Below, piece after piece: positions 1 through 36,930 of a stretch of DNA of 64,000 nucleotides. Made by a program: the position numbers and the translations under genes. This stretch comes from Escherichia coli (lineage in GTDB: Bacteria > Pseudomonadota > Gammaproteobacteria > Enterobacterales > Enterobacteriaceae), in assembly GCF_024502345.1 (NCBI RefSeq), contig NZ_JALDNN010000001.1. One strand, 5' to 3'. A model generated the notes under the pieces. That model was not told the origin of the DNA. It made no database searches and saw only the letters and a list, made by a program, of their open reading frames with translations. Numbering within the stretch: the stretch's first letter is position 1; each line of letters starts with the position of its first letter.

Positions 1-452
1 GCGCTGCCGGCGAGATACTGCCCGCCCTGCAGGGCGACATCAGAGAGTTTTTTCTGGATCTGCGCGGCGTTGGTCAGGTTGTGATCCGCCAGGAAGCCGC
101 TGGCCCAGTCAGGCAGATGGTTGAAGATGCTTGCCACCACTTCCGGGAACTGGGTGTTGTTCTCCTGAAGCTTCGTATAAACCACGTTCAGCTCAATGGC
201 GAGCGAGGAGAGGATCACCATCAGCGGGATAAAGACGATCAGGCAGATAATACCGATGGTCAACAGCGAGGCAAGCCCGTTGCGATCCCCCAGCGCGGTG
301 CGCAGCCTGTTTTTTACCGGGTTGAAGATGACGGTCAGAATGGCGGCCCACAGTATTGCGGAGAAGTAGGGCGACAGCACGTCGAAGAAGGCCCAGGTCA
401 CAAGGGCAAGAATAAAGATAAAGAAACCTTTGGTCAGTCCGTTAAAGCGCAT
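1..452 (-). CDS. AI-2E family transporter (UPF0118/PerM-like), N-terminal part; gene runs off the window start
   Basis: Reverse-strand ORF absent from the track because it has no stop inside the window. ATG at 450-452 (revcomp) translates to MRFNGLTKGFFIFILALVTWAFFDVLSPYFSAILWAAILTVIFNPVKNRL..., hydrophobic and TM-rich. Divergent from mmuP. Confidence 0.5.
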   Translation of the reverse strand, partial: MRFNGLTKGFFIFILALVTWAFFDVLSPYFSAILWAAILTVIFNPVKNRLRTALGDRNGLASLLTIGIICLIVFIPLMVILSSLAIELNVVYTKLQENNTQFPEVVASIFNHLPDWASGFLADHNLTNAAQIQKKLSDVALQGGQYLAGS

Positions 453-815
453 CAGTCAGTCCTGGTTACTAAGAAACTGTGTCGACTATAGAACTGATTG
501 TGAGAATTACCAACCTTGCGCCGGGTAGCGGCTGCGCCTTAACCGTCCTGCGGGCAGTGTTGCGGTATGAATCCGCTCTTCGCGGATACCACTTTCGACT
601 GACCGAAGATCGCCTTTTCCCGCACCATGCTGTAAGTATCTGCTTGCGGAGGTGCTTATGGCCTGGCGTCCGATTCTCTATGTGATCCTCACGACCCACC
701 CCAGACTCAGCGCGAGGCGTGCCCGTTTGCGTCTGGTCATCTAGCTTTTTATTAACAATCGCGGTATAACACACCTTCTTTGGATGTTTAGATGTCCATA
801 CGTATAGAAGGTAAT

Positions 816-2216
816 ATGCAAACACAACAAGAAAATGGGCAGCTTAAGCGCACCATGAAAACACGCCACCTGATTATGCTCTCGCTGGGTGGCGTGATTG
901 GGACAGGGTTATTCTTCAATACCGGATACATCATTTCAACCACCGGGGCGGCGGGCACGCTGCTGGCGTACCTGATAGGCGCGCTGGTGGTCTGGCTGGT
1001 GATGCAGTGTCTGGGCGAGCTTTCCGTGGCGATGCCGGAAACCGGCGCGTTCCACGTCTATGCCGCCCGCTATCTTGGCCCGGCGACGGGCTACACCGTG
1101 GCGTGGCTCTACTGGCTCACCTGGACGGTGGCGCTCGGCTCCAGCTTTACCGCCGCCGGGTTCTGCATGCAGTACTGGTTCCCCCAGGTGCCGGTCTGGG
1201 CCTGGTGCGTGGTCTTCTGCGTGGTGATTTTTGGCCTGAACGTCATCTCTACGCGCTTCTTTGCGGAAGGCGAATTCTGGTTCTCTCTGGTCAAAGTCAT
1301 CACCATTATCGCCTTTATTATTCTTGGCGGCGCGGCGGTCTTTGGCTTTATCCCTATGCAGGACGGTTCACCCGCGCCGGGCTTAAGCAACATCACCGCC
1401 GAGGGCTGGTTCCCGCACGGCGGCCTGCCGATCCTGATGACCATGGTGGCGGTGAACTTTGCCTTCTCCGGGACGGAGCTCATCGGCATCGCGGCGGGGG
1501 AAACGGAAAATCCGCACAAGGTGATTCCGGTTGCGATCCGCACCACCATTGCGCGCCTGATTATCTTCTTTATCGGCACCGTGTTTGTGCTGGCGGCGCT
1601 GATCCCGATGCAGCAGGCGGGCGTGGAAAAGAGCCCGTTCGTGCTGGTGTTTGAAAAGGTCGGTATTCCTTACGCGGCGGATATTTTTAACTTTGTGATC
1701 CTGACGGCGATCCTCTCGGCGGCGAACTCGGGCCTGTACGCTTCCGGGCGCATGCTGTGGTCGCTATCGAATGAGAAAACGCTGCCGCGCTGCTTTGCCC
1801 GCGTGAACAAAAACGGCGTGCCGCTGACGGCGCTCTCGGTCTCTATGCTCGGCGGCGTGCTGGCGCTGTTCTCAAGCGTCGTGGCCCCGGACACGGTGTT
1901 TGTCGCGCTCTCGGCGATTTCTGGCTTTGCGGTGGTGGCGGTGTGGATCAGCATCTGCGCGTCGCACTTCGTTTTCCGCCGCCGTCATCTGCAGTCCGGG
2001 CAGCCGCTCTCTGCGCTGCAGTACCGCGCGCCGTGGTATCCGCTGGTGCCGGTGCTTGGTTTTATCCTCTGCGTGGTGGCCTGTGTCGGCCTGTGGTTTG
2101 ACCCGAGCCAGCGCATTGCCCTTTATTGCGGGCTTCCGTTTGTCGCCCTGTGTTATGGTGCGTACTACCTGACCCGAAATATGACATCGCAGGAGCCTGA
2201 ACATGTCGCAGAATAA
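816..2216 (+). CDS. mmuP: S-methylmethionine permease (APC family amino-acid permease)
   Basis: Track ORF 792-2216; start moved to the ATG at 816 ([34 protein letters not shown]...), preceded by aggt. 12-TM APC permease; 3' end overlaps mmuM by 14 bp. Confidence 0.85.
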
Positions 2217-3135
2217 CCCGCTTACCGCCATCCTTGAAAAACAGCCGTTTGTGGTGCTGGATGGCGCGATGGCGACGGAGCTGGAAGCGCGCGGCTGTAA
2301 CCTGGCAGACAGCCTCTGGTCAGCCAAAGTGCTGGTGGAAAACCCGGAACTCATCCGCGAAGTGCATCTCGATTACTACCGCGCGGGCGCGCAGGTGGCG
2401 ATCACCGCCAGCTATCAGGCCACGCCTGCGGGATTTGCGGCGCGCGGTCTGGACGAAGCGCAGTCCCGCGCGCTAATCGGTAAAAGCGTGGAGCTGGCGC
2501 GCAAGGCGCGCGAAGCGTATCTGGCTGAAAATCCGCATGCCGGCACGCTGCTGGTGGCGGGATCCGTTGGGCCGTACGGCGCCTATCTGGCGGATGGCTC
2601 AGAGTATCGCGGCGACTACGTGCGTAGCGCCGGGGAGTTTACGGCCTTCCATCGCCCGCGCGTGGAAGCGCTGCTGGATGCGGGCGCTGACCTGCTGGCC
2701 TGCGAAACGCTGCCCTCGTTTACCGAGATTAAGGCGCTGGCGGCGCTTCTGGCCGAGTACCCCCGCGCCCGGGCGTGGTTCTCCTTTACCCTGCGGGACA
2801 GCGAACACCTGAGCGACGGTACGCCTCTGCGTGAGGTGGTCAGCGCGCTGGCAAACTCTCCGCAGATTGTCGCGCTGGGCATTAACTGCATCGCACTGGA
2901 AAACACTACGGCGGCGCTGAAGCATCTGCAAAGCCTGACGTCGCTGCCGCTGGTGGTCTATCCGAACTCGGGCGAGCATTATGATGCGGTCACCAAAACC
3001 TGGCACCACCACGGCGGAGCGTGCGAGACGCTGGCGGGGTATCTACCGCAGTGGCTGGAGGCTGGGGCCAAATTAATCGGTGGATGCTGTCGCACCACGC
3101 CGAAAGATATTGCTGAGCTGAACGCGCAGCGCTGA
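2203..3135 (+). CDS. mmuM: homocysteine S-methyltransferase
   Basis: 310-aa ORF with C-terminal GGCCRTTP zinc-binding motif typical of Hcy methyltransferases; coupled to mmuP. Confidence 0.9.
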
Positions 3136-3195
3136 GTGCTTTGCCGGGTGGCGGCTACGCCTTACCCGGCCTATATCTAAGGTTTCGTGCGCCTG

Positions 3196-3300
3196 ATGCC
3201 CTCACCCTGACCCTCTCCAACGGGGCTGAGGGACCCCCACATAATAATACCTCCACGGACGGCTCCCTCTCCCTCAAGGGAGAGGGCTGGGGTGAGGGGG
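3196..3300. repeat. REP-like palindromic repeat units (ccctcaccc / ccctctccctcaagggagagggctggggtgaggggg)
   Basis: Inverted G/C-rich arms read directly in the 670-bp mmuM-tauA spacer; further palindromes at 3373-3405 and 3481-3501. Confidence 0.5.
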
Positions 3301-3808
3301 AACATACGGCTGTGGTGGTCATTCCGTTCACTTCATGTTCCTTGCTACTTTGTAACGACATTGCCTGTGAACGTGCCAGGGTGGCTCAGTCGCCACCACC
3401 CTGGCGACCCGGGCTCCCGGCGGTAAATCGCCGCTTCGCGGTGCCCTCAGCTTATTCCTTCAGGCTATCGGGTCGGGCATGAGCCTGCATCCATGCAGGC
3501 CACGCCCTCTCGGCGCATCCCTGCGCCTCGCCCCGGCCTTACGGAAACGCTTCGGCGATTTACAGCCGGACCAGGGCATCGCTGTAAGCCATTCACTTTC
3601 CTGAAACCACATGCATCACTTCAGGTGAAAAAATTACTGGGTAACCCTCCGCCCACGGGGAGAGGGAAAAAACGAACCGCACAAAATTCGCTATCCTTTC
3701 CCGCTTTTTATCTAAAAACGAATCGTTATGAGCGATTCATTTTTATTCCTTTATCAAAATTCCCGCGCCGGAAATACTGCCCTCATAACAACAAGGGGAG
3801 CAGGCACT

Positions 3809-4771
3809 ATGGCAATTTCATCGCGAATCACACTTCTCGGCGCACTGGCGCTGTGGGCATTTCAGGCGCAGGCGGTGGACGTCACCGTCGCGTATCAAAC
3901 CTCTGCGGAACCGGCGAAAGTCGCGCAGGCGGACAACACCTTTGCGAAAGAGAGCGGCGCGAAAGTCGACTGGCGCAAGTTCGACAGCGGCGCATCCGTG
4001 GTGCGTGCGTTAGCCTCCGGCGACGTGCAGATCGGCAATATCGGATCCAGCCCGCTGTCGGTGGCGGCCAGCCAGCAGGTGCCGATCGAGGTTTTCCTGC
4101 TCGCCTCGCAGCTCGGTAACTCAGAAGCGCTGGTAGTGAAGAAAAACATCACTAAACCGGAAGATCTGATCGGCAAACGCATCGCCGTGCCGTTTATCTC
4201 CACAACCCACTACAGCCTGCTGGCGGCGCTCAAACACTGGGGCATCAAGCCGGGTCAGGTACAAATCATCAACCTGCAGCCGCCGGCGATTATCGCAGCC
4301 TGGCAGCGCGGGGATATTGACGGGGCTTACGTCTGGGCACCGGCAGTGAACGAACTGGAAAAAGACGGCACCGTGCTGACCGACTCAGAAAAAGTGGGCC
4401 AGTGGGGCGCGCCAACCCTCGACGTGTGGGTCGTGCGCAAAGACTTCGCCGAGAAACATCCTGAGGTGGTGAAAGCCTTCGCCAAAAGCGCGATTGATGC
4501 CCAGCAGCCGTACATCTCTAACCCGGATGAATGGCTGAAGCAGCCCGCCAACCTGGAAAAACTCTCCCGCCTGAGCGGCGTGCCGGAAGCGGACGTGCCG
4601 GGGCTGGTGAAAGGCAATACCTATCTGACCCCCGCGCAGCAGGTGCAGCAGCTTACCGGGCCGGTAAACAAAGCGATTGTTGATACCGCCACCTTCCTGA
4701 AAGAGCAGGGCAAAGTGCCAGCGGTGGCGACGGATTACAGCCAGTACGTGACCGATCGTTTTGTGAAATAA
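3809..4771 (+). CDS. tauA: taurine ABC transporter substrate-binding protein
   Basis: Track ORF 3728-4771; start set to [22 protein letters not shown] (signal peptide), giving 320 aa. First gene of tauABCD. Confidence 0.9.
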
Positions 4772-4781
4772 GGAGTCCGCC

Positions 4782-5549
4782 ATGCTGAATATTACGAACC
4801 TGTACGCCGATTACGGCGGTAAGCCCGCGCTGGAGGACATCAACCTGACGCTGGACAGCGGTGAGCTGCTGGTGGTGCTGGGCCCGTCCGGGTGCGGAAA
4901 AACCACGCTGCTGAATCTGATCGCCGGGTTTGTCCCTTATCAGCATGGCACCATCCAACTGGAAGGCAAAAAGGTGGAAGGCCCGGGCGCCGAGCGCGGC
5001 GTGGTCTTCCAGAACGAAGGATTGCTTCCCTGGCGCAACGTGCAGGAAAACGTGGCGTTTGGGCTACAGCTTGCGGGCGTCAATCGCGAACAGCGGCTGG
5101 AAACGGCACGGACGATGCTGAAAAAAGTGGGGCTGGAAGGGGCGGAAAAACGCTTTATCTGGCAGCTTTCCGGCGGCCAGCGGCAGCGCGTGGGTATTGC
5201 CCGCGCGCTGGCCGCGAATCCGCAGCTGTTGCTGCTGGACGAGCCGTTCGGGGCGCTGGATGCCTTCACCCGCGAGCAGATGCAAACCCTGCTGCTGCGC
5301 CTGTGGCACGAGACGGGCAAGCAGGTGCTGTTGATTACCCACGATATCGAAGAGGCGGTGTTTATGGCGACGGAGCTGGTGCTGCTCTCGCCGGGGCCGG
5401 GCCGCGTGCTGGAGCGCTTGCCGCTGGATTTCGCCCGCCGCTTCATCGCGGGAGAACCCGTGCGCAGCATCAAATCCGATCCGCTGTTTATCGAACAGCG
5501 TGAATACGTCTTAAGCCGCGTGTTTGAACAACGGGAGGCTTTCTCATGA
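4782..5549 (+). CDS. tauB: taurine ABC transporter ATP-binding protein
   Basis: Walker [10 protein letters not shown] and ABC signature LSGGQRQR. Confidence 0.9.
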
Positions 5550-6373
5550 GCATCGTCTTCAGTGAAAAAACGCGCCGCACGCGTCTGGCGCTGCGCTGGC
5601 CTTTCTCGCGCCAAATCACGTTGAGCGTCGGTACGCTGCTGTTGCTGCTGGCGGTGTGGTGGGCGGTTGCTGCCCAGCAGTGGGTCAGCCCGCTGTTTCT
5701 GCCGCCGCCGGGCCAGGTGCTGGCCAAACTCATTACCATCGCCGGGCCGCAGGGCTTTATGGATGCCACGCTCTGGCAGCACTTAGGTGCAAGTCTGGCG
5801 CGTATTCTGGTGGCGCTTCTGGCAGCGGTAATTATCGGGATACCGGTCGGGATCGCGATGGGCTTAAGCCCGACGGTGCGCGGCATACTCGACCCGCTGA
5901 TTGAGCTTTACCGTCCGGTGCCGCCGCTGGCCTGGCTGCCGCTGGTGGTTATCTGGTTCGGCATAGGTGAAACGCCCAAAGTTTTACTCATCTATCTGGC
6001 GATCTTTGCGCCGGTTGCAATGTCAACGCTGGAAGGCGTGAAGAGCGCCCAGCAGGTGCGGATCCGCGCGGCGCAGTCGCTGGGAGCCAACCGCACGCAG
6101 GTGCTGCTGTTCGTGATTTTACCGGGCGCGCTGCCGGAAATTTTAACCGGGCTGCGCATCGGCCTCGGCGTGGGCTGGTCCACGCTGGTGGCGGCAGAGC
6201 TGATTGCGGCCACGCGCGGCCTTGGGTTTATGGTGCAGTCGGCGGGAGAGTTCCTGGCGACTGACGTGGTGCTGGCAGGGATCGCGGTGATCGCCGCGAT
6301 CGCCTTCGGATTAGAACTGGGGCTACGCGCGTTACAGCGCCGCCTGACGCCCTGGCATGGAGAAATACAATGA
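5546..6373 (+). CDS. tauC: taurine ABC transporter permease
   Basis: 275-aa multi-TM protein; 4-bp overlaps with tauB and tauD. Confidence 0.9.
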
Positions 6374-7221
6374 GTGAACGTCTGACCATTACCCCGCTGG
6401 GGCCGTACATTGGCGCGCAGGTGTCGGGCCTGGATGTGACCCGTCCGCTGAGCGATAACCAGTTCGAGCAGCTGTACCACGCGGTGCTGCGTCATCAGGT
6501 CGTTTTCCTGCGCGAACAGGCGATCACCCCGCAGCAGCAGCGCGCGCTGGCCCTGCGCTTTGGCGATCTGCATATCCACCCCGTCTATCCGCATGCGGAA
6601 GGCGTGGAGGAGATTATCGTTCTGGACACCCACAACGATAACCCGCCGGACAACGACAACTGGCACACCGACGTGACCTTTATCGAGACGCCGCCCGCCG
6701 GGGCGATTCTGGCGGCGAAGCTGCTGCCGGAAACCGGCGGCGATACGCTGTGGACCAGCGGGATTGCGGCGTATGAGGCGCTCTCCGCGCCGTTCCGGAC
6801 GCTGCTGAGCGGGCTGCGGGCGGAGCACGACTTCAAAAAGTCGTTCCAAGAGTACAAGTACCGTAAAACGGAAGAGGAACATCAGCGCTGGCAGGAGGCG
6901 GTTGCGAAGCATCCTCCGCTGCTGCACCCGGTGGTGCGGACCCATCCTGTCACGGGCAAGCAGGCGCTGTTCGTGAATGAAGGGTTCACGACGCGCATCG
7001 TGGACGTGTCCGAGAAAGAGAGCGAGGCGCTGCTGGGATTCCTGTTCGCGCATATCACCAGGCCGGAGTTTCAGGTCCGCTGGCGCTGGCAGGAGAACGA
7101 CCTGGCGATCTGGGATAACCGCGTAACGCAGCACTATGCCAATGCGGACTATCTGCCGCAGCGCCGGATTATGCAGCGGGCGACGATTTTGGGGGATAAG
7201 CCGTTTTATCGTGCGCCTTGA
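6370..7221 (+). CDS. tauD: taurine dioxygenase (alpha-ketoglutarate-dependent)
   Basis: 283 aa, TauD/TfdA family; contains HTD (WHTDVTF) iron-binding motif. Confidence 0.9.
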
Positions 7222-7318
7222 TCCCCTCACCCTAACCCTTTCCCAAAGGGGCGAGGGGACTGCCCGGGCGGTTTTCACCCTCTCCCTTTTAGGGAGAGGG
7301 CTGGGGTGAGGGTATTAA
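7222..7318. repeat. REP-like palindromic element (cccctcaccc...ccctctcccttttagggagagggctggggtgaggg)
   Basis: Same repeat family as at 3196-3300; sits between convergent tauD and the acyltransferase gene and overlaps the latter's 3' end. Confidence 0.5.
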
Positions 7319-9013
7319 ATGCGCCTCAATATACCGCTGATAGCGGTTCGCCTTCAGGTAACACAAATCCACCAGCACCAGTCCGTCGACGCAGTCGTTA
7401 AACGCCGGGTCGCTGCCAAAATCAATAAACTGCACGCCGCCGGGTTCACACAGCTCGGAATACTGCTTGTAGAGCGGCGGAATGCCGCAGCCCAGATTGC
7501 CGAGCAGGGATTTCAGCTTTGTCAGGTCATCCACGTAATCCACGCCGCCAAACTGCGCGAGCACGTCCGGCAGCGATGCGGGATACGGCTGACGTGACGC
7601 GGCCAGCGGATGCGTTGCCGGGAACCACAGGCGGTAAAAGGCCACCAGCAGATCCCGTGCGGCAGGCGGTAAGCCACCGGAAATGGAGACCGGGCCAAAC
7701 AGGTAGCGGTAGTTCGGATAACGCGCCAGGTAGGCTCCAATGCCGGACCATAAATAGTCCAGGCCGCGGCGTCCCCAGTAGCGCGGCTGAATAAAGCTGC
7801 GCCCCAGCTCAATGCCGTGCTCCAGTACGTCCTGCATTTTGTCGTCGTAGTGGAACAGGCTATAGCTGTACAACCCCTCAACGCCGCGCTTTTCGATCTG
7901 CATGGCCGTCGGCATAAAGCGATACGCCCCGACGATCTCCAGATCGTCCTCATCCCACAGGATCAGGTGCAGATAATCATCGTCGTAGCTGTCGGTGTCC
8001 CGACGTTTGCCGCTCCCTTCCTCGACCGCGCGAAAGGCAATCTCGCGCAGGCGGCCCAGCTCGCGCAGCAGCGGGGCGTCTTCCTGCCCGTTGCGCTGCC
8101 AAAGATAGATGGTTTTACCGTCGCTGGTATTGCCCAGACATTCGGCCTGCGCCAGCGCGCGTTTCAGGGTGGCGCGGTCTTCCGGGCGGGCAATGGCGCA
8201 CTGGGTTTTAAAGACGCCAGGCAATCCCTTGCCAAGACGCATCACGTGCTGACGGCACTGTTCGGCCATCTCACGCGACGAAAGGCTGGCGCTGTGCCAG
8301 TGATGCCAGGCAATCTGCTGGCCGATCTTAATCGGCAGCTGTCTGTGGCGGCGGCGGAACATCTGCTGCATGAGTAACAGCATTGACAGCGTCGGGGAGA
8401 CCAGCGTGCTGGCATAGAAGAGCAGGCTGTTATGCGCCTGAATATGCACCGGCAGCAGCGGGGCGCGCAGCTTGCTGGCGAGTTTGATAAAGCCAGAGTG
8501 CCACTTTTTGTCGCGAATGCCTTTGCGCGTGGGGCGGGAAACTTCTCCGGCCGGGAAGAAGATCAGCACGCCCGCGTTTTGCAGATGCTGTTCCATCTGC
8601 ACCAGGGACGATTTCGCTGTCCTGCCGCCCATATTATCCACCGGAATAAACAGCGAGCTGAGGGGCTCAAGGTGGGTCAGCATCCGGTTGGTCACGACTT
8701 TAACATCGCGCCTCACGCGGGAAACGGCGTACATCAGCGCCAGGCCGTCCAGCGTACCCGTCGGGTGGTTGGCAATAATGACCAGCGGGCCATGTTCGGG
8801 GATTTGTTCAAGATCGCGGGCGGAAACGGTGCAGAGAATATCAAGGTGTTCCAGAACTTGCTCCACCATATCCAGTCCTTTCAGGTGGCGGTGTGCTGCG
8901 GCAAATTGCTGAAATTCGTCTTCGTAAAACAGTCTTTTTAACAGACTTTTTTGCCAGGGTGCAGGCCTCGCCTGAGGCCAAAGATCGTCGAGAACGCTAT
9001 CGAGGCTAAACAT
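7289..9013 (-). CDS. bifunctional acyltransferase (PlsC-like HX4D domain + GNAT/OlsB-like domain), 'hemolysin-like'
   Basis: 574-aa ORF; NHPTGTLD matches the H(X)4D motif of lysophospholipid acyltransferases. Functional assignment is from motif and architecture only. Confidence 0.55.
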   Translation of the reverse strand: MFSLDSVLDDLWPQARPAPWQKSLLKRLFYEDEFQQFAAAHRHLKGLDMVEQVLEHLDILCTVSARDLEQIPEHGPLVIIANHPTGTLDGLALMYAVSRVRRDVKVVTNRMLTHLEPLSSLFIPVDNMGGRTAKSSLVQMEQHLQNAGVLIFFPAGEVSRPTRKGIRDKKWHSGFIKLASKLRAPLLPVHIQAHNSLLFYASTLVSPTLSMLLLMQQMFRRRHRQLPIKIGQQIAWHHWHSASLSSREMAEQCRQHVMRLGKGLPGVFKTQCAIARPEDRATLKRALAQAECLGNTSDGKTIYLWQRNGQEDAPLLRELGRLREIAFRAVEEGSGKRRDTDSYDDDYLHLILWDEDDLEIVGAYRFMPTAMQIEKRGVEGLYSYSLFHYDDKMQDVLEHGIELGRSFIQPRYWGRRGLDYLWSGIGAYLARYPNYRYLFGPVSISGGLPPAARDLLVAFYRLWFPATHPLAASRQPYPASLPDVLAQFGGVDYVDDLTKLKSLLGNLGCGIPPLYKQYSELCEPGGVQFIDFGSDPAFNDCVDGLVLVDLCYLKANRYQRYIEAHLIPSPQPSP

Positions 9014-9140
9014 GGTTACTCCTCCTGCCGTCTTGCGAAGACAGTAGAAGGCGCAGATGTCGGTTGTATTGCAGTTTGGTGAAGATTAGCGCAGAGAGCA
9101 GGCCGGGTAAGGCGAAGCCGCCACCCGGCGCTAAAGCGGA

Positions 9141-10115
9141 TTAACGCAGAATTTTCTTCTCGGCCAGATCCAGCGCGAAGTAGCTGAAGATCAGATCCGC
9201 GCCTGCGCGTTTGATGGCGCCGAGGCTTTCGAGGACCACTTTCTCTTCGTCAATCGCACCGGCCAGCGCGGCGAATTTGATCATCGCGTACTCGCCGCTG
9301 ACCTGGTAAGCGCCCAGCGGCAACTCGGTGCGCTCGCGGATGTCGCGCAGGATATCAAGGTACGCGCCCGCAGGTTTCACCATCAGGCAGTCTGCGCCCT
9401 GGGCTTCATCGAGCAGGGATTCACGAATCGCTTCGCGGCGGTTCAGCGGGTTCATCTGATAGGTTTTACGATCGCCCTTCAGCGCCGTGCCCGCAGCTTC
9501 ACGGAACGGGCCGTAGAAGGAGGAGGCAAATTTGGTGGAGTAAGACATGATGGCGGTGTCGGTAAAGCCCGCCGCGTCCAGCGCCTGACGGATCGCCTGA
9601 ACCTGTCCGTCCATTGCGGCAGAGGGCGCGATGAAGTCCGCACCCGCAGCGGCAGCCACGACCGCCTGTTTGCCGAGGTTCAGCAGGGTGGAATCGTTAT
9701 CCACGCCGTGATCGCACAGCACGCCGCAGTGGCCGTGGGAGGTATATTCGCAGAAGCAGGTGTCTGACATAACCACCATTTCCGGCACGGTCTCTTTGCA
9801 GATGCGGGACATGCGGGCGACGAGGCCATCTTCTTTCCACGCGTCGCTGCCGGTGGCATCGGTATGGTGAGAGATGCCGAAGGTCATCACCGAGCGGATC
9901 CCCGCGTTGGCGATGCGTTCAATCTCACGTGCCAGATATTTCTCCGGAATGCGCATTACGCCCGGCATGGCTTCGATGGCTTTGTAGTCATCGATCTCTT
10001 CTTCGACAAAAATCGGCAACACCAGATCGTTTAAGGTCAGGGTTGTCTCTTCAAACATAGCGCGCAGTGCAGGTGACTTGCGCAGGCGGCGGGGACGTGC
10101 AATTAAATCGGTCAT
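9141..10115 (-). CDS. hemB: porphobilinogen synthase (delta-aminolevulinate dehydratase)
   Basis: Track ORF extends to a GTG at 10316; true start taken at [26 protein letters not shown] (324 aa). Confidence 0.9.
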
Positions 10116-10150
10116 GGTATGCCTGATGTTTGTGGAACAAAGAAGGCTAG

Positions 10151-11346
<1,196 letters not shown>

Positions 11347-11485
11347 TAAGCTAAAAATGTGATTTAAGTCAAATCAGCAATCGGGGAGTGAAACAGATAA
11401 TGTTTTTATTGCCCGGCAGAAATCCTTCTCCGGGATGTCTCTCTGGAGCTGAAAAGGATGAATCGTATCTACCGGTTGGTCTGGA

Positions 11486-21127: not shown

Positions 21128-24100
21128 CTAGAGGTGCCCTCCAACCCCTTTAAATTTTTCGATAAACGCCCCAATTTTCTGGAATACGGTCTGCTTTTTC
21201 GTTTTGTACTGAGGATTCAGCGGACTGAGCTTTGGTAGCGTCTCATTTAGCTCAGTGCCATTTTCGGTAGCATACTCCCGTTTGAGTGATGTGCGGATAT
21301 AGCGCCTTGCAGCCTCTTCATTGAGGTTTTCTTCCTTAATCAACGCCTCTGCTTCCCGTTGCTGTTCACGCTGAGCATAGGTAAAGAATGCATCAATGAT
21401 ACTGGCCTTGTCCGGCATGTCATCAAGGTTAGTTTGCTGAATAAAGTCAACAATCAGACCTTCTTTGGCACGGTTGCCCAGACTTGAGCGGATTAAGCGT
21501 CTGACCTCTTCAGTCAGGGCTTCTTTACCTTTTTTCTCTCTGTTGTGGTCGAAAATCAGGCCAAGGATGTAATCCAGGTTAATTTCCTGCGACTTCAGCA
21601 GGTCAATTTCAAACACCACGTCATCCCAGTCTGTGGTTGATTTATCCCTGTCGTTTGATGCTTTTTCGCGTCGCTGCCAGTCCCGGATATCATTGTATGC
21701 TGAGCGATAGTCCTGAACTTTACGTTCTGCCGGGAGACGAATGGTTTGTAATTCAGCAAATTTTTCATCATCCACATAGTGCTCTGCTTTAAAGGTTTCT
21801 ACCGCTTCCGGGTCACTAATATCAACCTTCTGCAGGGCTTTCAGCGTGGCAAATTCATCATAGTTTTGCAGGATGTTTTCTGCCCGCAGATATTCACCAA
21901 ACAGTTTGACGAAGGCTTTTTTCTCTTTTTCACTGTCGATACTGGCAGGGTCAGGGAAGCGCTGCTCCAGCTCCGAAACAACAGCCATAAAACCTCGTTT
22001 AGCCTCACCGGTTGCCGCATCGGTAAAGCCCTGCATGTACTCTTCGTAGCTTTTTTCCAGCACCACATTCTTGGTGTTTTTGTCGCCAAAAAGTGTGATG
22101 GCATCAATGGTCGGACGCTCCAGGTCCCTGAAAGTCACGATATTGCCGAAGGTTTTGGTTGCATCATAGATACGGTTGGTGCGTGAGAATGCCTGCATCA
22201 GACCGTGATAACGCAGGTTTTTGTCAACGAACAGAGTATTGAGCGTCGGGGCATCAAAGCCGGTTAAGAACATTCCCACCACGATGAGAAGGTCGATATC
22301 CTGATTTTTCACTCGTTGAGCTAAATCGCGGTAGTAGTTCTGGAAGCCGTTACTGTCGGTACTGAAATTGGTTTTAAAGTGGTTGTTATAGTCATCAATG
22401 GCTGAATCCAGGAATTCCTTTGCGCTGCTGTTCATTGCGCTGGTATCAAAGCTTTCGTCAGTAATATCACCAATGGCGCTTTGCTCTTCATTAGCAGCAA
22501 AAGAGAAGATGGTTGCCACACGAAGACGTTTATAGCTGCCAGATTTCTTCTCAGCTTCTTCCTGTAGCATTTTAAATGTCGTGTAATAAGCTTTTGCCGC
22601 GTCCACGCTGCTCACTGCTAACATGGCATTGAAGCCTTTTGCTCCCGGGAAGGTACGATGCGTTTTCTGGCGGAAGTTATTGAGAATGTATTGCGTTATT
22701 TCCTGGATACGCAGTGGGTGCAGAAAGGCCTGCTGGTTTTCAGCCGCGCTGAGTTTTTTCTCGTCTGTTTCCGTTTCAAGGGACTTAAACTGTGGGCGGA
22801 CATCGTTATAGTCCACCTTAAACTTCAGCACTTTTTCATCACGAATCGCATCAGTAATTACGTAAGAATGTAATTCACGCCCGAAGACGCTGGCGGTGGT
22901 TTCTGCCCCCAGTGCATTTTCCGGGAAAATAGGCGTACCGGTAAAACCAAACTGATAAAAGCGTCTGAATTTCTTTTTGAGGTTTTTCTGGGCCTCACCA
23001 AACTGGCTGCGGTGACACTCATCAAAGATAAACACCACCTGCTGCTGATAGACGGGCAGGTCAGCTTCGGCTTTCATCAGGTTATTGAGTTTCTGAATGG
23101 TTGTGACGATAATTTTGTTATCGTCCTTATCCAGGTTTCTTCTGAGGCCAGCTGTATTATCCGAACCATTCACACTGTCCGGAGAGAAGCGCTGATACTC
23201 CTTCATGGTCTGGTAATCGAGGTCTTTCCTGTCGACCACGAAGAAGACTTTATCAATAAAGTCCAGCTCGGTTGCCAGTCGTGCGGCCTTAAAACTGGTC
23301 AGGGTTTTTCCTGACCCTGTGGTATGCCAGATAAACCCGCCGCTTTCGGGTTTTGACCAGTTCTTCGCTTTAAAAGAGCTGTTGATTTTCCAGAGAATGC
23401 GCTCAGTGGCCGCTATCTGATAGGGACGCATGACCAGCAGTGTCTGGCTGCTGTCAAACACGCTGTAATTAAACAGAACATTCAGCAGGGTATGCTTCTG
23501 GAAGAAAGTGGCGGTAAAGTCCTTCAGGTCCTTTATCAGGGTGTTATCCGATTTCGCCCAGTTCATGGTGAAATCAAAGCTGTTTTTATCCCGCTTAGTG
23601 GTACTGGCAAAGTACCGGGTATCAGTCCCGTTGGAAATCACGAAGAGTTGCAGGTATTTAAACAGGGAGTTATCGCTGTTAAAGCTTTCCTTGCTGTAAC
23701 GGTGTATCTGGTTAAAGGCTTCACGAATCGCCACGCCGCGCTTTTTGAGTTCGATTTGCACCAGTGGCAGGCCGTTGACCAGAATGGTGACGTCATAACG
23801 GTTAGCGTGTGAGCCGGTCTGCTCAAACTGCTGAATGACCTGCACCTTATTGCGCAGCAGGTTCTTTTTATCTATCAGATAGATGTTTTCCAGACGACCA
23901 TCATCAAACGTAAAATCACAGATATAGTCGATATGGATTTTACGGGTTTTGTCCAGGCTGCTGTCACTGGGGCTGTCCAGATACTGCTCTGCGAAGCGCC
24001 GCCATTCACTTTCGTTAAACTCCACACCATTAAGACGCTGAAGCTGGTCCCGCACATTCGCCAGCATCGCAGTCGGTGACTTAACGGAGATAAACTCATA

Positions 24101-24244
24101 CCCCTGATTAAGAAGGTCCTGAATCAGCTCCCGCTCAAGGTCCAATTCGCTCTGGTAGCTGTCACCGGTATCCATAACTTTTGTGTATTTATCAAGGACG
24201 ATAAAGTTATTGGATTCAGCAATGGTGTGTGTCTGTTGTGTCAT
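21128..24244 (-). CDS. hsdR: type I restriction enzyme R subunit (HsdR), type IC-like size
   Basis: 1038 aa; Walker [18 protein letters not shown]-box helicase motifs (FDECHRSQ), N-terminal nuclease region; RBS present. Confidence 0.9.
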
Positions 24245-24360
24245 GGAGCATCCTGTGCGTCATCTGGCAAAGTCCGGAAGGGTATCAGAAGCATCTTCCG
24301 GCATTCATAAAACCTGATACCGGACGGGTGAGAACAAACCCTGCCGGTATCAATGGTCCG

Positions 24361-25569
24361 TCAGTTGCTAGTTGTTTCGTGCTTCGGGAAGCTGAACAAC
24401 AAGTCGCGATAGTACTCGTACTGCTTCTGGCGTAGTTCTATTTCACGGGGTAAGCCTTCGGTGATAGAGCTTGTTAATGTGTCGAATTTATCGAGTATGG
24501 TGACAATCCTAACTTGCTCTGACTTTGAAGGGATTGGTAGTAAAAGGTCCTCCATTTGTTTTTTGGATACGGCAGGAATACCTCCTTTCTGCTGAATACC
24601 CGTTAATTTGGTCTCGGATTGTTTCAGATAGTAATAGACATACATCCAATGCAACTGTTCAGTGCTTCTAACAGAGATGGAATAGCAACTATTGCCTGCC
24701 CAGTAAGGAGTGGAACTCTTATTTACAAATCCTGCATTTGCTCCACGCGCACTCACAATAATCTTATCGCCATCATTGTTGAAGTCTTCGTAGTAACCTG
24801 TAGGAGTCCGCCCTCCGTTGTAGACCGGATAATCTGCGTCAGGATTCTGCTTGTCCTTACGGACAAACGCACCAATTGTAATTATTGCTACTTCCCCCAG
24901 ACTCTTCCACTCAACACTCCCCCCCTCAAAACTCAGCAATTGGTTACGATAGTAATTGTACTGCTTTTTACGCATGGTAAGCTCAGCTGTAAGCTCAGCT
25001 GTAAGAGCAGTAAATTTATCCAGAATTCGGACGATTTCAGACTGGATGGTCAGAGACTTTTCAGGATTTTCCGGGCAAGGAATGGGGGCTTTATATGCTG
25101 AAATCATTTGAAGATTCAGCCCACCACGCCCGCTGTTCCCAGATGATATCTGACGTAGATTATCATACTGGGTTTCCAAAAAGTGGAAAATATAATCTGA
25201 ATTGATCTTCCGCTCATCAAATGTAATGGCTGCAAGTGATTGATTGGTGGTTAATTTAATGCGGGTTCTTGCTACTTTACCACGAGTTTTACCCTGACCT
25301 GCTAATGCCATAACAATGGAATTTTCAGGAACAAATTTAGCACTTGAGTTATTTAATCCATCCTCAGTAATGAATGTCTCAGTTTCTTTGATGGTTTTTA
25401 AATTTACTTCACCTGAACTCATCCAGGGGATAGTTCCATGCTCCCAATATTCTGTTTTTTTAGTATCAGGGGTGCCACCAGAATAAATTTTTTTTGCAAC
25501 CTTACCGAGAGGGAACCACTCAACCTCAATCCCCTCCAGCAGTTTTTCCAGATAATTTAGCTTACTCAT
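24361..25569 (-). CDS. hsdS: type I restriction-modification specificity subunit (HsdS)
   Basis: 402 aa with two target-recognition domains separated by a central conserved region containing TAELTAEL; start overlaps the hsdM stop (ATGA). Confidence 0.85.
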
Positions 25570-27122
25570 GCCTGCGCCTCGTAGCCTTCAATTTCTGCCA
25601 CAATCGCATCAATGTCTTTGCGTAACTGGTCGATTTTGCTGACCGTGGTTTTAAGCTCAACATTCAGTTCGGTGATATCGACGATTTCACGGGTATCTTT
25701 TGCTTCGACGTAGCTACTGACAGACAGATTGTAGTCATTACCAGCAACAGTCTCTAATGGCACCGTTTTCGCCAGATGGTCAGTATCTGCCTTACTGTTG
25801 AACACATCCATAATCTGCTTAATATGACCATCAGTCAGGATATTGTTATTGGTTTCTTTCTTAAACAACCCGCTGGCGTCAATAAACTGAACGCGGGTAT
25901 CTGTTTTGTGCTTGGACAACACTAGTATGTTAACGGCAATGGTGGTGCCGAAGAACAGATTTGGTGCCAGAGAAATCACCGTTTCAACATAGTTGTTGTC
26001 GACCAGGTACTGGCGGATTTTCTGCTCTGCTCCGCCACGGTAGAAAATACCGGGGAAGCAAACTATTGCTGCACGCCCTTTAGCTGACAGGTAGTTTAGT
26101 GCATGTAGCACAAACGCAAAGTCAGCTTTTGATTTCGGGGCCAGTACGCCAGCAGGAGCAAAGCGCTCATCGTTAATCAGGGTCGGATCATCACTACCAA
26201 TCCACTTAACCGAGTACGGTGGGTTAGAAACAATCGCATCGAACGGTTTTTCATCGCCAAAGTGAGGCTCAGTCAGGGTATTCCCCAACCTGATATCAAA
26301 CTTATCGTAGTTGATGTTGTGCAGGAACATATTCATACGCGCCAGGTTAAACGTCGTATGATTTATCTCTTGTCCGAAAAAACCTTCTTCAATGATATGA
26401 TTATCAAAGTGCTTCTTCGCCTGAAGCAGCAGTGAGCCAGAGCCTGCGGCAGGGTCATAGATTTTGTTGACGTGAGTCTGACCATGCATCGCAAGCTGAG
26501 CAATCAGCTTAGAGACGTGCTGTGGTGTGAAGAACTCCCCGCCAGACTTACCGGCATTCGCCGCATAGTTTGAAATCAGGAACTCGTAGGCATCACCGAA
26601 AAGGTCAATCTGGTGCTCATTAAAATCCCCGAGCTTTAGCCCCTCAACGCCTTTCAGAACGGCAGCGAGGCGGCTGTTTTTGTCTTTGACGGTGTTACCC
26701 AGTCGATTGCTGGTCGTATCGAAATCGGCAAACAGACCTTTGATGTCGGCCTCAGACGGATAGCCGTAGGCAGAGCTTTCAATAGCGACGAAGATACTGT
26801 TTAAATCAGCATTCAGCCTGTCGTTGGTGTTCGCTTTAGCGGCAACGTTGCAGAACAGCTGGCTCGGATAGATGAAATAGCCTTTAGTCCTGATGGCATC
26901 ATCTTTGATGTCATCGGTAATGATGCTGTCATCAAGTGCTGCATAATGTATGCTCTCATCCCCTGCTTCCATGTAGCTGGAAAAATTCTCACTGATGAAG
27001 CGGTAGAAAAGGGCACCGAGTACATACTGTTTAAAATCCCATCCATCTACTGAGCCCCTGACATCATTGGCAATGGCCCAGATTTGACGGTGTAGTTCTG
27101 CACGTTGTTGAAGACTGGTCAT
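25566..27122 (-). CDS. hsdM: type I restriction-modification N6-adenine DNA methyltransferase (HsdM)
   Basis: 518 aa; catalytic NPPY motif ([10 protein letters not shown]) and AdoMet-binding motif. Confidence 0.9.
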
Positions 27123-27710
27123 TTTTATCCTGTTATCGATTCTTGGTTTCGGCTATTGCTGCGATTTTATCGCAATTTTACTTCTTTGACAGGTTTGAGT
27201 GATGCCTGATAGCCTCCCCAATGAAGGTTAAAATGGTTAATGAAATGTACAGAGAATCAATCGGATATGCTGTTTCGATTTCTGGAGCATCATTAGCGGT
27301 GTTTAGGGGCAGTTCATTACATTTCTGACCTTGTATAGATATGCCGTGATGAAATAAACGTTCACAGCCATCATCTGATCGGTGTGCAACAAAGGCGTCA
27401 TTCATTAAATACGCAGAGAGCCTGACTTATTGCGTCAACGGGTGAGTTACAATGTTGAATCTGGTAACGCCAAAACTGTGTAATTATCTACGCTAAATCA
27501 TTTCTGGTTAGCGTGACCGACGCCGGCGGTCTTAAGATGTACAATTCTTACTGTCTCCGAATGAATTTTATTTATTCAAACAGACTTGGGTGATATTATT
27601 ATCAAGTGAAAATGCCTGTTACCTACCTTGATGATATATACAGTGTTTTTACAGATGAATTTATATGTTTGTAATCAATGCGTGAGTTTGATGTTTTTAA
27701 GGTTAGTTAA

Positions 27711-28031
27711 ATGAAACAGCTATTGGATTTTATAATTGGAAGTTGTGTGGATAACAGAACCAAATTTCAGTTGCTTGCAGTTTGTTATCCAAAATGTAAG
27801 GATGATGAAGTGATGTTGATTTTGCGCTGGAGGGTAGCTGATTTGTATGCGCATGAACTGGAAGTTCAGAATTATCTTTTTAGAGAGCTGGAAGGTATCA
27901 TAGAGAAAATCACGGGCCTGCCTGAAACCTATTTTGTATCAAGCTATAAATCACTATTGACCGATGATTTTAGAGAACTCACAGCAGCGGGGGTTGATGT
28001 TTGTAAGTTTATTATGGAAAACAAAGGTTAG
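27711..28031 (+). CDS. hypothetical protein (106 aa), AT-rich orphan
   Basis: ORF in a low-GC segment, opposite orientation to its neighbours; no recognisable motif. Confidence 0.3.
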   Translation: MKQLLDFIIGSCVDNRTKFQLLAVCYPKCKDDEVMLILRWRVADLYAHELEVQNYLFRELEGIIEKITGLPETYFVSSYKSLLTDDFRELTAAGVDVCKFIMENKG

Positions 28032-28146
28032 TTGGATAAGAACCAACACATTTTCAGGTTCTGTTCTGGCTGAGGAACCTGAATATTCAATCAATGTGTT
28101 AGTTCTATTTTTGATGGTTAGATTTAAATGTGATTCTTTTGCGGTG

Positions 28147-28482
28147 TTATACTGCTGTTATGCATCTAAAAAGCTGACGGCTTTGTTTATGTTTTATGTT
28201 CGGATAGATTCTCATCGCAGCTGCACAGAGAGGTGAAACCTGCCTTGCTATATTTTTACCAAAGTTAACAAGAAGACCATGCTTGATCTTTTCACTATTC
28301 GTTCTGACTTTGATGACAAAGCTGAACTGATATACGATTACCTCAATGAGGTCATTGCCAAATGTTATACTGGCAGCGTTGTTTATTTCATGTTCATAAT
28401 TCCTCAGGTCAGTGTTAAGTCTTGCTGTTGCATCTACAAGTGCGTATTCTTTATCGATAATCATAACTTTCTCACTTATCAT
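28147..28482 (-). CDS. hypothetical protein (up to 111 aa), AT-rich orphan
   Basis: ORF 40 bp downstream of the HTH-WYL regulator on the same strand; start uncertain. Confidence 0.3.
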   Translation of the reverse strand: MISEKVMIIDKEYALVDATARLNTDLRNYEHEINNAASITFGNDLIEVIVYQFSFVIKVRTNSEKIKHGLLVNFGKNIARQVSPLCAAAMRIYPNIKHKQSRQLFRCITAV

Positions 28483-28522
28483 GTTAATGTGATTTAATCA
28501 TCACTAATAATATGTTGTGATT

Positions 28523-29236
28523 TTAATTGCGATTATTCGGTTGTTTTGCCCCGTAATGCATTATCTGATGAATAATGTTCATGTGGGGTAAGGCTTCCAT
28601 AAAGTCAGACTGTTCAATCAGCGAAATGAGTGTGTTATCGATCTCAAACGTTGTATCCGGTAATACCTCAACCAGCCTGATTCGGGACAGGGAAATAACG
28701 AACACGCCCGATGACGTACATCCGGCAAGAAACCACTCCGCATGGCTGCAAAGCAGACGGTAGGGATGAACGGTATGGCTGACGTTTTCGTCGGTTCTGA
28801 TACGCACCTGGGTCTGGTTAAGTATGGCGAGCGTCAGTCTGCTGAAATCACCGAAAAGGGTGGGTTTCTGGCGCGGCTCCGGTAGCATAATCCTGTATGG
28901 CGAGGGACGTTCCCCGTCAAGCATCAGGCTCAGTAGTTTGGCATCCATCGCGGGTAACAGACGGTCAAGATGCAGCAACCTCGCCAGTATCTTCATATCC
29001 CGTTCCGTGCGGCGACGAAAGTAATGTGAGGCAAGCTGATACACGCCGTTGCTCTGTTCAATATCAAGGTAGGTCAGACGGACGTTGAAATCCCGTCGCA
29101 GCGTTCGCGTCGTCACTCCAAATTCTTCTGCCAGCGTCCCGATATGCAGCTTTTCACCCTGAAACAAACGGCTCAGGATGATGGAAAGGCGGGTTGCCAG
29201 TCTGTCATGTTCGTTTTCTTGTGTTATCAGCGTCAT
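28523..29236 (-). CDS. HTH-WYL domain transcriptional regulator
   Basis: N-terminal HTH LAEEFGVTTRTLRRDF; central WYL-type segment HPYRLLCSHAEWFLAGCTSSGVFVISLSRIRLVEV. Confidence 0.7.
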   Translation of the reverse strand: MTLITQENEHDRLATRLSIILSRLFQGEKLHIGTLAEEFGVTTRTLRRDFNVRLTYLDIEQSNGVYQLASHYFRRRTERDMKILARLLHLDRLLPAMDAKLLSLMLDGERPSPYRIMLPEPRQKPTLFGDFSRLTLAILNQTQVRIRTDENVSHTVHPYRLLCSHAEWFLAGCTSSGVFVISLSRIRLVEVLPDTTFEIDNTLISLIEQSDFMEALPHMNIIHQIMHYGAKQPNNRN

Positions 29237-29338
29237 ACATCATTTCCGAATTTAGCCGGGAAATGATGCCAGCAGTAGCGGACAGGATTTGTCCGCCCTC
29301 TGAAGTTTTTTAAAGTCTGAATACCTTAAATGTAAGTG

Positions 29339-30088
29339 CTAAACGTCAGTATTCTCAGGTGAATAAAGATGCTTCTGGCGCATGTAGGCAATAAAAATGC
29401 AGGATGGTAGCGTCACCCGGTATGCGGGACCGGCTAAATCAATCAGCAGCCAGAGAGAACTGAGCACCCAGCCCACGGGACCGGCAAAAGCGCCCATGGT
29501 ACGCGTCAGCATGGCATTTCCTGCAACGGTCAGCCCTCTGCCTAACAGGGCTTTCGCCACACCATTTGTGACAACAAGTGCCATCTGATAGGCCGCAAAC
29601 CCGGATGTTTTAATCCCCGCCTGGATTGCCATGGTCAGCAGCTCCGGCGTGGGATTGCTGTAGCCTGTCTGCAATTCTTCCGCCACGGTCTTTAGCTGAG
29701 CGGGTGTCATCTTCTCAAGGCTTTTCTCCAGGATCTTCATCAGCAGATTCATTTCAATGGTTTCAACACTGGATTTGCTGTTGTAGTTCACCTTCATTTT
29801 ATCGCAGGCATCGGTAAGAATTTCCCGGTACAGCACCCCTTTACCCCAGCGGAGCAGCGTGGCAAAGCTGTTCGCCCCAAACGTCTGAACTTCGGCGGCA
29901 ATGGCATCCCAGTAGCGCGGGTGGTTGGGCTTGTGTTTTTTATACTGAGGATCATAGGTCAGCGTTTCCGTGATGCGTGCCAGTCCGTCTTTCGGATCGC
30001 AGATAAGCACAGAAACCAGTAAATCCAGATCGTCACGATGACAGTGGCGCAGAAACTCAAGGTCGGGGTCGTGTCGGTAGGTAGCCAT
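29339..30088 (-). CDS. hypothetical protein (249 aa) with C-terminal Gly-rich hydrophobic segment
   Basis: ...GAFAGPVGWVLSSLWLLIDLAGPAYRVTLPSC...; possibly YaaW/UPF0174-like (from memory, unverified). Confidence 0.5.
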   Translation of the reverse strand: MATYRHDPDLEFLRHCHRDDLDLLVSVLICDPKDGLARITETLTYDPQYKKHKPNHPRYWDAIAAEVQTFGANSFATLLRWGKGVLYREILTDACDKMKVNYNSKSSVETIEMNLLMKILEKSLEKMTPAQLKTVAEELQTGYSNPTPELLTMAIQAGIKTSGFAAYQMALVVTNGVAKALLGRGLTVAGNAMLTRTMGAFAGPVGWVLSSLWLLIDLAGPAYRVTLPSCIFIAYMRQKHLYSPENTDV

Positions 30089-30231
30089 ATTTCACCTCAT
30101 TGCAGATATTGGACCTGACAGTTTAAGGAAGCACCCGGACAGGGTTTGTCCGCCTGAAAAACAAAAAAGTAAAAAAAAACCTACCCGAAAGCAGGTTTCT
30201 GTTCACCGGATGGAGGTATAACGCGTCGGGA

Positions 30232-30618
30232 TTACTTTCCGCGCCATTCCTTTTCCACTTTATCCGCAAAGGCATCGCACTGCCGGGCATATTCCGGGTT
30301 ATACAGAAGCTCCGACTGCGAAAGCTGCATGGCGGTCATGCTGCCGTTACGGGCGTTCGATTCGAGCCAGGTTCTGCCATAGGTTTGGTTCATCACCTGA
30401 AGTACCCTGTTGAATACCGGTCCGTTGAAGCGGGCATTGAGATTAACGCCTTTTACCTGAAGGCCGCTGTCACTGGTCTGGGTCAGGCGGGTGGAGTACA
30501 TCGCGCAGAAGGTCGAATTGGTAATCATCTGAGCGTCAGCCTGCTCGTCGGCGAACGCGCTGTGGCTGAAGGCGGAAAGCAGAATTGCGGCGGTTAACAG
30601 TTTTAAAGTTTTCATCAT
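30232..30618 (-). CDS. secreted/periplasmic hypothetical protein (128 aa)
   Basis: Signal peptide MMKTLKLLTAAILLSAFSHSAFA; two Cys residues in the mature part. Confidence 0.55.
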   Translation of the reverse strand: MMKTLKLLTAAILLSAFSHSAFADEQADAQMITNSTFCAMYSTRLTQTSDSGLQVKGVNLNARFNGPVFNRVLQVMNQTYGRTWLESNARNGSMTAMQLSQSELLYNPEYARQCDAFADKVEKEWRGK

Positions 30619-30692
30619 GTTCCCTTATGGATTGAAAAGCGGAGACAGCCTGCCATACGGGGTGGTCAGGAGATGTCCGGCAGAGAAAAAAG

Positions 30693-31375: not shown

Positions 31376-31433
31376 AACATTCAGTTCCTTACTACGGGGG
31401 AGAGGGGGGATGCGGGGGAAACGTTGTGAACAC

Positions 31434-36919: not shown

Positions 36920-36930
36920 CTGATGGCTGA

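Follow-up and report, generated by a model that had tools for sequence, protein, structure and literature searches.

The 64,000-nt stretch of the Escherichia coli contig NZ_JALDNN010000001.1 that was analyzed here (the window) consists of four parts distinguished by composition (Table 1). A left block (1-10150, GC content 0.600) carries mmuPM, tauABCD, olsF and hemB. It is followed by a part with a GC content of 0.509 (10151-20240), which holds copies of insertion sequences (ISs), an autotransporter gene and a tyrosine integrase gene and is treated together with the block as island 1, then by a part that corresponds to island 2 (20291-39795, GC content 0.473; island 2 itself ends at 39804), and finally by E. 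coli core DNA at the tRNA-Phe gene pheV (39796-64000, GC content 0.505). We conclude, with a probability of roughly 0.85, that the left block is a piece of an Enterobacter chromosome (Enterobacter cloacae complex) that was captured in a tRNA-Phe tyrosine-integrase island and spread by site-specific integration. The mosaic structure of the window is genuine but not exceptional in kind: it is due to a tRNA-Phe island, and what is unusual is the cargo, core genes of another genus.

Table 1. Features of the 64-kb window, in window coordinates
Feature	Position	Strand	Evidence or remark
Chromosomal segment, probably Enterobacter-derived	1-10150		Runs past the left window edge; homology and GC content
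AI-2E family transporter gene, 5' part	1-452	-	Cut by the window edge; mapped from G3/10 annotation (L001 18343-19452)
mmuP, S-methylmethionine permease	816-2216	+	NCBIfam NF008484, 976 bits, full length; third-position GC 0.78
mmuM, homocysteine S-methyltransferase	2203-3135	+	NCBIfam NF007020, 449 bits
Repetitive extragenic palindrome (REP), Enterobacter type (GCCGGGTGGCG...TTACCCGGCCTA)	3141-3175		Sequence
Inverted BoxC/TMECO pair	3196-3300		Contains an exact consensus match; family in PMC4666352
Repeat resembling a miniature inverted-repeat transposable element (MITE), structured, about 260 bp	3315-3582		mmuM-tauA spacer; related copies in Enterobacter, Leclercia and Silvania
tauABCD, taurine ABC transporter and taurine dioxygenase	3809-7221	+	G3/10 annotation of identical DNA
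tauA	3809-4771	+
tauB	4782-5549	+
tauC	5546-6373	+
tauD	6370-7221	+
Inverted BoxC/TMECO pair	7222-7318		Contains an exact consensus match; overlaps the last olsF codons
olsF, bifunctional ornithine lipid synthase, intact	7289-9013	-	NF052615 equivalog
hemB, porphobilinogen synthase, second, foreign copy	9141-10115	-	NF009923, 551 bits; 82.6% to native E. coli hemB
IS5-family element, ISKpn26-like, 1196 bp	10151-11346	-	Transposase 10298-11278; 16-bp terminal inverted repeats
AIDA-I/Ag43-type autotransporter gene, island backbone	11486-14536	+	Autotransporter beta-barrel families
IS30, complete	15651-16871	-	Transposase 15658-16809; inverted repeats at both ends; NF033563
isrC, island-encoded small RNA	17025-17147	-	Rfam RF01387, 140 bits
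IS1 fragment	18015-18689	+	Right end kept, left end gone
Tyrosine integrase gene, island 1	18782-20044	-	NF007246, 246 bits, below the curated cutoff of 434
50-bp repeat (49 nt from the 3' part of pheV and the next 1 nt)	20241-20290	-	Serves as left attachment (att) repeat for island 2; island 1 ends here on its tRNA side
Island 2, 19.5 kb, GC 0.47	20291-39804		Pfam matches; flanked by 50-bp direct repeats
hsdR, type I restriction-modification, island 2	21128-24244
hsdS, type I restriction-modification, island 2	24361-25569
hsdM, type I restriction-modification, island 2	25566-27122
WYL/DeoR regulator gene, island 2
Integrase genes, island 2	33205-34515; 36974-38158
DUF927 protein gene, island 2	34585-36513
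E. coli core in K-12 order (yqgA, speC, nupG ... yggI)	39795-64000		REPs and bacterial interspersed mosaic elements (BIMEs) at 48473-48552 and 59228-59352; K-12 comparison
Intact tRNA-Phe gene (pheV)	39806-39881	-	ARAGORN; Rfam; K-12 pheV; sole tRNA gene of the window

Enterobacter affinity of the left block

All genes of the block are intact, and mmuP, mmuM, tauA (NF008553, 674 bits), olsF and hemB match NCBIfam equivalogs over their full length. The block genes have a higher GC content at third codon positions (GC3, 0.72-0.80) than the native tau and hemB genes of E. coli (0.58-0.64). One carrier of the block, E. coli G3/10, is a component of the probiotic Symbioflor 2. At 3.81-3.84 Mb, G3/10 also has the native locus (lacZ-mhp-frm-yaiO-tauABCD-hemB-ehaB-ampH-sbmA) in intact form, and as this strain retains its own orthologous tauABCD-hemB, the block is a second, foreign copy. 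Nucleotide identity between the window and the native locus of G3/10 was 80.1% for tau and 82.6% for hemB, and the native tauD-hemB spacer lacks olsF. In G3/10 coordinates, the homology to Enterobacter extends over 12.7 kb (L001 16428-29150, GC content 0.598), starting ~2.57 kb to the left of window base 1.

Potential donors were sought with the OlsF protein as the query against one genome per bacterial species. OlsF identities were 98% in Enterobacter asburiae, Enterobacter vonholyi and Enterobacter chuandaensis, 94-96% elsewhere in the E. cloacae complex, 88-92% in Leclercia, Lelliottia and Silvania, and 75-83% in Citrobacter and Raoultella. At the nucleotide level the block was collinear with Enterobacter chromosomes at 88-95% identity (E. 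asburiae TN152, 94.8%; E. vonholyi, 93.7%; genomospecies O, 92.8%), and Citrobacter and Raoultella showed 77-81% identity to it. The annotated gene order in Enterobacter hormaechei is diguanylate cyclase (DGC) - AI-2E transporter - mmuP - mmuM - tauABCD - acyltransferase (olsF) - hemB - autotransporter - ampH - sbmA; olsF thus lies natively between tauD and hemB in Enterobacter, and mmuPM stands beside tauA in the window because this is the native Enterobacter arrangement. The block therefore combines Enterobacter gene order with 92-95% identity to Enterobacter, compared with 80-82.6% to the native E. coli genes.

Of 5426 complete E. coli genomes, 17 held window 1-10300 at 100% identity, and by name and size these represent about 11 distinct strains; the remaining genomes matched over tau-hemB only, at about 80-82%. 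A plasmid origin of the block was considered and rejected: the block occurred at high identity on no plasmid, and the best match was an E. hormaechei 'plasmid' with 88% identity and chromosomal gene order.

The intergenic repeats of the block were compared with those of E. coli and Enterobacter. E. coli-type REP motifs were absent from the left block and from 239 kb of Enterobacter loci, and within the whole window they were confined to 48473-48552 and 59228-59352, plus a single CCTGATGCG match at 61163. REPs of the GCCGGGTGGCG type were common in the Enterobacter loci but rare in the E. coli core that was sampled; the Enterobacter loci used for these motif densities are orthologues of the block and thus not an independent genome sample. 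The consensus of BoxC/TMECO is CCCTCNCCC N3-6 GGGNGAGGG N3 GGGNGAGGG (PMC4666352). Two exact matches to it, at 3265-3298 and 7278-7312, were present in the window (0 expected, from 100 shuffles), and the GGGTGAGGG arms occurred at 3199, 3290, 7224 and 7304 and nowhere else in the 64 kb. Several Enterobacter loci carry the same pair at the site that corresponds to 7222-7318. The highest BoxC count, 143, was reported for E. asburiae LF7a (PMC4666352); E. coli K-12 MG1655 has 23 copies, and one of these, no. 5 in Table 1 of PMC4666352, occupies 388,664-388,699 within the native tauD-hemB spacer; the native spacer of G3/10 carries a BoxC element as in K-12. BoxC is therefore enriched in Enterobacter without being diagnostic, because K-12 has it too, and the case for a foreign origin is carried by REP type, GC3 and direct homology, not by BoxC. 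An Rfam scan of the window for structured RNAs that might underlie the palindromes yielded no match at the threshold other than isrC and tRNA-Phe.

The repeat at 3315-3582 is also present at the orthologous spacer in E. cloacae M-7 (91.8% identity), while most Enterobacter representatives are without it there. A Leclercia locus carries two copies in both orientations, and Silvania has copies too. This highly structured repeat looks like a MITE of the Enterobacter/Leclercia clade.

The sequence-only reading of this window had drawn attention to palindromes at 3196-3300 and 7222-7318 as being of an Enterobacter/Klebsiella type. Both palindromes are real, each an inverted BoxC/TMECO pair, and the origin was named correctly at the genus level for Enterobacter, although the argument from BoxC is weak given the 23 copies in K-12. 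The adjacency of mmuPM and tauA, which it rightly noted is lacking in K-12, is the order annotated in E. hormaechei. The classical REP/BIME units (48473-48552, 59228-59352) and K-12-like gene order described for the right side were likewise confirmed, this side being collinear with K-12 at 98-99% except for a TRAP-transporter insertion. Comparing the two halves separately gave Enterobacter as nearest to the left half (92-95%) and E. coli as nearest to the right, and the suggestion of a horizontally acquired core-like segment agrees with the Enterobacter homology, synteny and GC3 of the block. Its start at 3141 has to be corrected, as the foreign DNA begins before window base 1.

The tRNA-Phe islands and the right breakpoint

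The integrase gene of island 1 (18782-20044) adjoins the pheV 3' remnant at 20241-20290. Window 1-16411 and 18015-20290 are collinear at >=99.9% with G3/10, where they end at the integrase gene beside intact pheV-yqgA-speC. The collinear integrase is annotated by PGAP as a tyrosine-type recombinase/integrase adjoining intact tRNA-Phe in G3/10, ST536, ECONIH4, 0H26 and 2273-PO3. Apart from the pheV location in G3/10, the island occupies pheU, beside dicD-dsbD-cutA, in four other carriers: ST536 (a mussel isolate), ECONIH4, 0H26 and O15:H12 2273-PO3. The island is therefore variably present (17 of the 5426 genomes) and uses alternative att sites. The whole island of ECONIH4, about 39 kb, lies between cadC and pheU and ends at its far side with a CbtA/YafW - antirestriction - RadC-like module and a 17-bp repeat of the tRNA 3' part; this far end is outside the window, and its repeat is known from ECONIH4 only. 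The window differed from the G3/10 island by 5 mismatches in about 18.7 kb, and from the adjacent core of G3/10 by 119 mismatches in 11,893 and 174 in 9,107. The near-identity of the island beside a core that differs by 1-2%, and the use of two att sites, indicate that the island moved recently between lineages. We propose that an Enterobacter segment in its native order, DGC - AI-2E transporter - mmuPM - tauABCD - olsF - hemB, was captured in a tyrosine-integrase island that inserts at the 3' end of tRNA-Phe genes, and that the island thereafter spread among E. coli lineages via pheV or pheU.

Homology to Enterobacter stops at 10150 in every Enterobacter locus, which is the outer end of the IS5-family element (10150/10151). 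The element is flanked by CTAG and TAAG, and hence has no target-site duplication; where the window has the IS, the Enterobacter sequence continues from CTAG into TGTACCTCAAAG (beginning TGTACC). The autotransporter beyond the IS (11486-14536) is 97-100% identical in other island carriers. It was also considered as the hemB neighbour of Enterobacter or E. coli (an EhaB/YaiT orthologue), and this was rejected, as tblastn found no relative of it in the Enterobacter loci or the native locus. Since the autotransporter is unrelated to the Enterobacter and native neighbours, the IS did not simply insert here but is a joint at which unrelated DNAs recombined. Only 35 bp separate the hemB start codon from the IS upstream of it.

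Several further observations concern this part of island 1. With 35 bp (10116-10150) as the only native upstream DNA left to it, the island hemB is probably without a promoter of its own and would rely on transcripts that start in the IS or pass through it. Autotransporter alleles differ by an in-frame change in repeat number at 13483-13555, with 1016 aa in the window and annotated coding sequences of 1073, 1043 and 1049 aa in G3/10, ST536 and ECONIH4, respectively. In K-12, isrC lies just upstream of the Ag43 gene flu. Downstream of isrC in the window there is a complete IS30 instead, and the expected autotransporter partner of isrC seems to have been lost.

Island 2, which is unrelated to island 1 and stands in tandem with it, is bounded on either side by a direct repeat taken from the 3' part of the tRNA gene, 20241-20290 being 100% identical to 39805-39854. 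Its integrase gene at 36974-38158, near intact pheV, encodes a product with a Pfam Phage_integrase match that is 24% identical to the island 1 integrase. A 96%-similar relative of island 2 is located elsewhere in G3/10, and the layout in strain 2022CK-00450 is analogous: there, the integrase gene of island 1 is followed by another element instead of the tRNA gene. Either att copy could have been the target for the second-arriving island. The two tyrosine integrases of island 2 and its DUF927 protein, which has a Cch-type helix-turn-helix (HTH), are encoded next to the type I restriction-modification genes; the integrases together with the DUF927/Cch-type HTH protein suggest a composite or satellite-like element.

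The core from pheV to yggI is collinear with K-12 at 99.0% (39795-51689) and 98.1% (54894-64000), and at least 80% of 39001-64000 is covered in 4475 of the 5426 complete E. coli genomes. None of them was identical over the whole window, and the core part was matched most closely at 99.2%. A three-gene TRAP-transporter cluster (3.2 kb, GC content 0.43) is inserted at 51690-54893 between yggM and hemW, in place of the 154-bp yggM-hemW spacer of K-12; this spacer contains a copy of the REP/BIME repeat that the window has at 59238-59335. The spacer is likewise short in G3/10, and the cluster is also present in the genomes matching the window best.

Proposed capture of the block and alternative explanations

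Islands of the G3/10 type contain other chromosomal pieces besides the block. An appC'BA-etk' fragment (L001 1174-5578, to the left of the part equivalent to the window) shows 98-99% identity to native E. coli and is cut at an ISKpn26 copy, and a gntP'-lutCBA-dld-lctP piece with foreign lactate-utilisation genes is found in only 11 genomes. As appC'BA-etk' duplicates E. coli's own region, the island has captured host core DNA also; it is made up of chromosomal fragments that meet at IS copies, in the manner of a collage. We infer IS-mediated capture from this IS-bounded patchwork; IS-IS recombination, cointegrate resolution and adjacent deletion would be candidate routes. In G3/10, the left end of the Enterobacter segment abuts a TetR-HTH piece of low GC content (0.42), which is followed by IS1, so that the 14.2-kb stretch between IS1 and ISKpn26 is made up of the 12.7-kb Enterobacter segment and the TetR-HTH piece. 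A composite transposon was rejected, as its flanking ISs should be the same and those found here differ (IS1, ISKpn26). A composite of two ISKpn26 copies was rejected too, the G3/10 copies being 95.9% identical and flanked by TTAG, CAAG, CTAG and TAAG without a matching duplication.

Four points count against capture of an Enterobacter segment in a mobile tRNA-Phe island. No IS lies directly at the left joint of the segment, which is outside the window. Neither target duplications nor a composite-transposon signature were found, so that IS-mediated capture is circumstantial. The closest donor reaches about 95% in a search of one genome per species, which does not pin the source species. Window 16412-18014 and the exact tandem with island 2 were reproduced in no complete genome searched.

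The island might instead have been assembled in an Enterobacter host and have entered E. coli as a finished unit, e.g. through recombination or imprecise excision of a nearby island. E. hormaechei carries a CbtA/YeeU-antirestriction-RadC island-end module about 5 kb from DGC-AI-2E-mmuPM, and a homologous module forms the far end of the E. coli island. However, the orientation of the module relative to the block is opposite in the two hosts, and no tRNA gene is present within 10-20 kb of the block in the fetched Enterobacter loci; co-excision via a tRNA gene near the block was rejected on the latter ground. The E. coli-derived appCBA-etk indicates that the patchwork was at least partly made in E. 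coli. Moreover, a look-up of the exact OlsF protein for contexts outside E. coli gave nothing beyond short metagenome contigs that show the E. coli island context and end at IS copies. We consider assembly in Enterobacter unlikely.

An assembly or construction chimera of Enterobacter and E. coli DNA would be in keeping with the coverage of the middle of the window: among the complete E. coli genomes, none had 80% or more of 10151-20300, or of 10301-35000, in a single place. In addition, window 16412-18014, which is uncorroborated, lies between IS30 and the IS1 fragment, repeats at which mis-joins can occur. This uncorroborated stretch contains the right part of IS30, isrC, an MCP-like fragment and the start of the IS1 fragment. 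Homology with other island carriers stops inside IS30, at 16411, where these have a truncated IS30 and then about 10 kb of IS debris, and the difference looks like ordinary IS-mediated variation. The joint from 10150 through the IS to 11347 onward recurs at 99.7-100% in 15-17 independently assembled complete genomes, and this joint (Enterobacter DNA, ISKpn26, autotransporter) is found at two tRNA-Phe loci. In addition, att-site repeats and an integrase gene beside tRNA-Phe bound the island, the boundaries of island 2 are exact 50-bp tRNA repeats, and the arrangement in 2022CK-00450 is analogous. A chimera is thus very improbable. Least probable, and close to negligible, is an intrachromosomal rearrangement that moved the strain's own tau-hemB beside pheV: the gene names do equal those at the native 8-min locus and ISs able to mediate a rearrangement are present, but the identities and GC3 values given above separate the block from the native E. 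coli genes, olsF and the adjacent mmuPM are traits of Enterobacter and not of E. coli, and for G3/10, which retains the native locus, the event is already refuted.

The sequence-only reading had left a large rearrangement and an assembly or construction joint standing beside horizontal acquisition. The former fails on the 80-82.6% identity to native tau-hemB and on the native locus kept by G3/10 in its lac-mhp-frm-yai context, and the latter on the recurrence of the same joints in 15-17 complete genomes and at two tRNA-Phe loci. Its observation that the junctions coincide with IS5 and the island was borne out, the break being exactly at 10150/10151 at the IS5-family end. It had also proposed that both halves lying collinear in one genome would speak against a mosaic. 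They do lie so in G3/10, which removes the artefact and rearrangement readings, but the two halves still differ in evolutionary origin.

Cargo genes and comparison with known elements

An intact olsF is the most notable cargo of the block. The window OlsF scores 806.5 bits against NF052615 (cutoff 620) over profile positions 1-570 of 570, which places it in this family. The C-terminus of OlsF varies among Enterobacter orthologues, with matches ending at residues 565-574, and olsF is frameshifted in ECONIH4. Ornithine lipids, a phosphorus-free class of membrane lipid, are not known to be made by E. coli. Heterologous expression has been used for ornithine lipids in E. coli, and their formation there is reported to be linked to abiotic stress resistance (PMC11001654). 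In E. cloacae, aminolipids accumulate under phosphate limitation although olsBA is lacking (bioRxiv 10.1101/2024.09.11.612458). Tentatively, and going by gene content, the island might give a few natural E. coli lineages an intact olsF and with it ornithine lipids, which could affect phosphate-limited growth, stress tolerance or polymyxin tolerance, together with extra hemB, tauABCD and mmuPM; under the same tentative proposal, the island would act as a shuttle of 'core' blocks between enterobacterial genera through IS-mediated capture. If olsF is expressed, the membranes of carriers would contain a lipid that standard E. coli does not have. With the proposed origin, the apparent anomaly of the window, namely repeats, GC content and neighbours that seem wrong for E. 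coli, is explained as island cargo from another genus, and tRNA-Phe islands can move intact housekeeping and metabolic operons across genera, duplicating essential genes such as hemB.

Among known elements, the cryptic prophage region CP4-6 of K-12 carries mmuPM beside an IS5 copy. CP4-6 shares with island 1 an island-borne, IS5-associated mmuPM, and differs in its tRNA site (thrW) and in lacking tau, olsF and hemB. Sequences of the K-12 mmuPM type (plasmid-borne copies) showed about 82% identity to mmuPM of the window. The window olsF shares a full-length match with OlsF (NCBIfam NF052615), but resides in E. coli, whose native spacer is without olsF. The BoxC units of the window belong to the BoxC/PIT/TMECO intrastrand-triplex repeats (PMC4666352) and are arranged in inverted pairs, as they are at five K-12 sites. 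Island 1 most closely resembles the GI-pheV islands of E. coli (PMC11537424), with a P4-type integrase gene beside tRNA-Phe, repeats of the tRNA 3' part, interchangeable pheV and pheU sites, a mosaic, IS-rich interior, an Ag43/AIDA-type autotransporter, isrC, a CbtA/YeeU-antirestriction-RadC far end and tandem occupancy. The 2024 paper on GI-pheV evolution (PMC11537424) does not mention tauA, taurine, hemB, mmuP or Enterobacter. Unlike that of the GI-pheV islands, the cargo of island 1 is a 12.7-kb run of core metabolism genes of another genus, not virulence or defence genes (PMC11537424).

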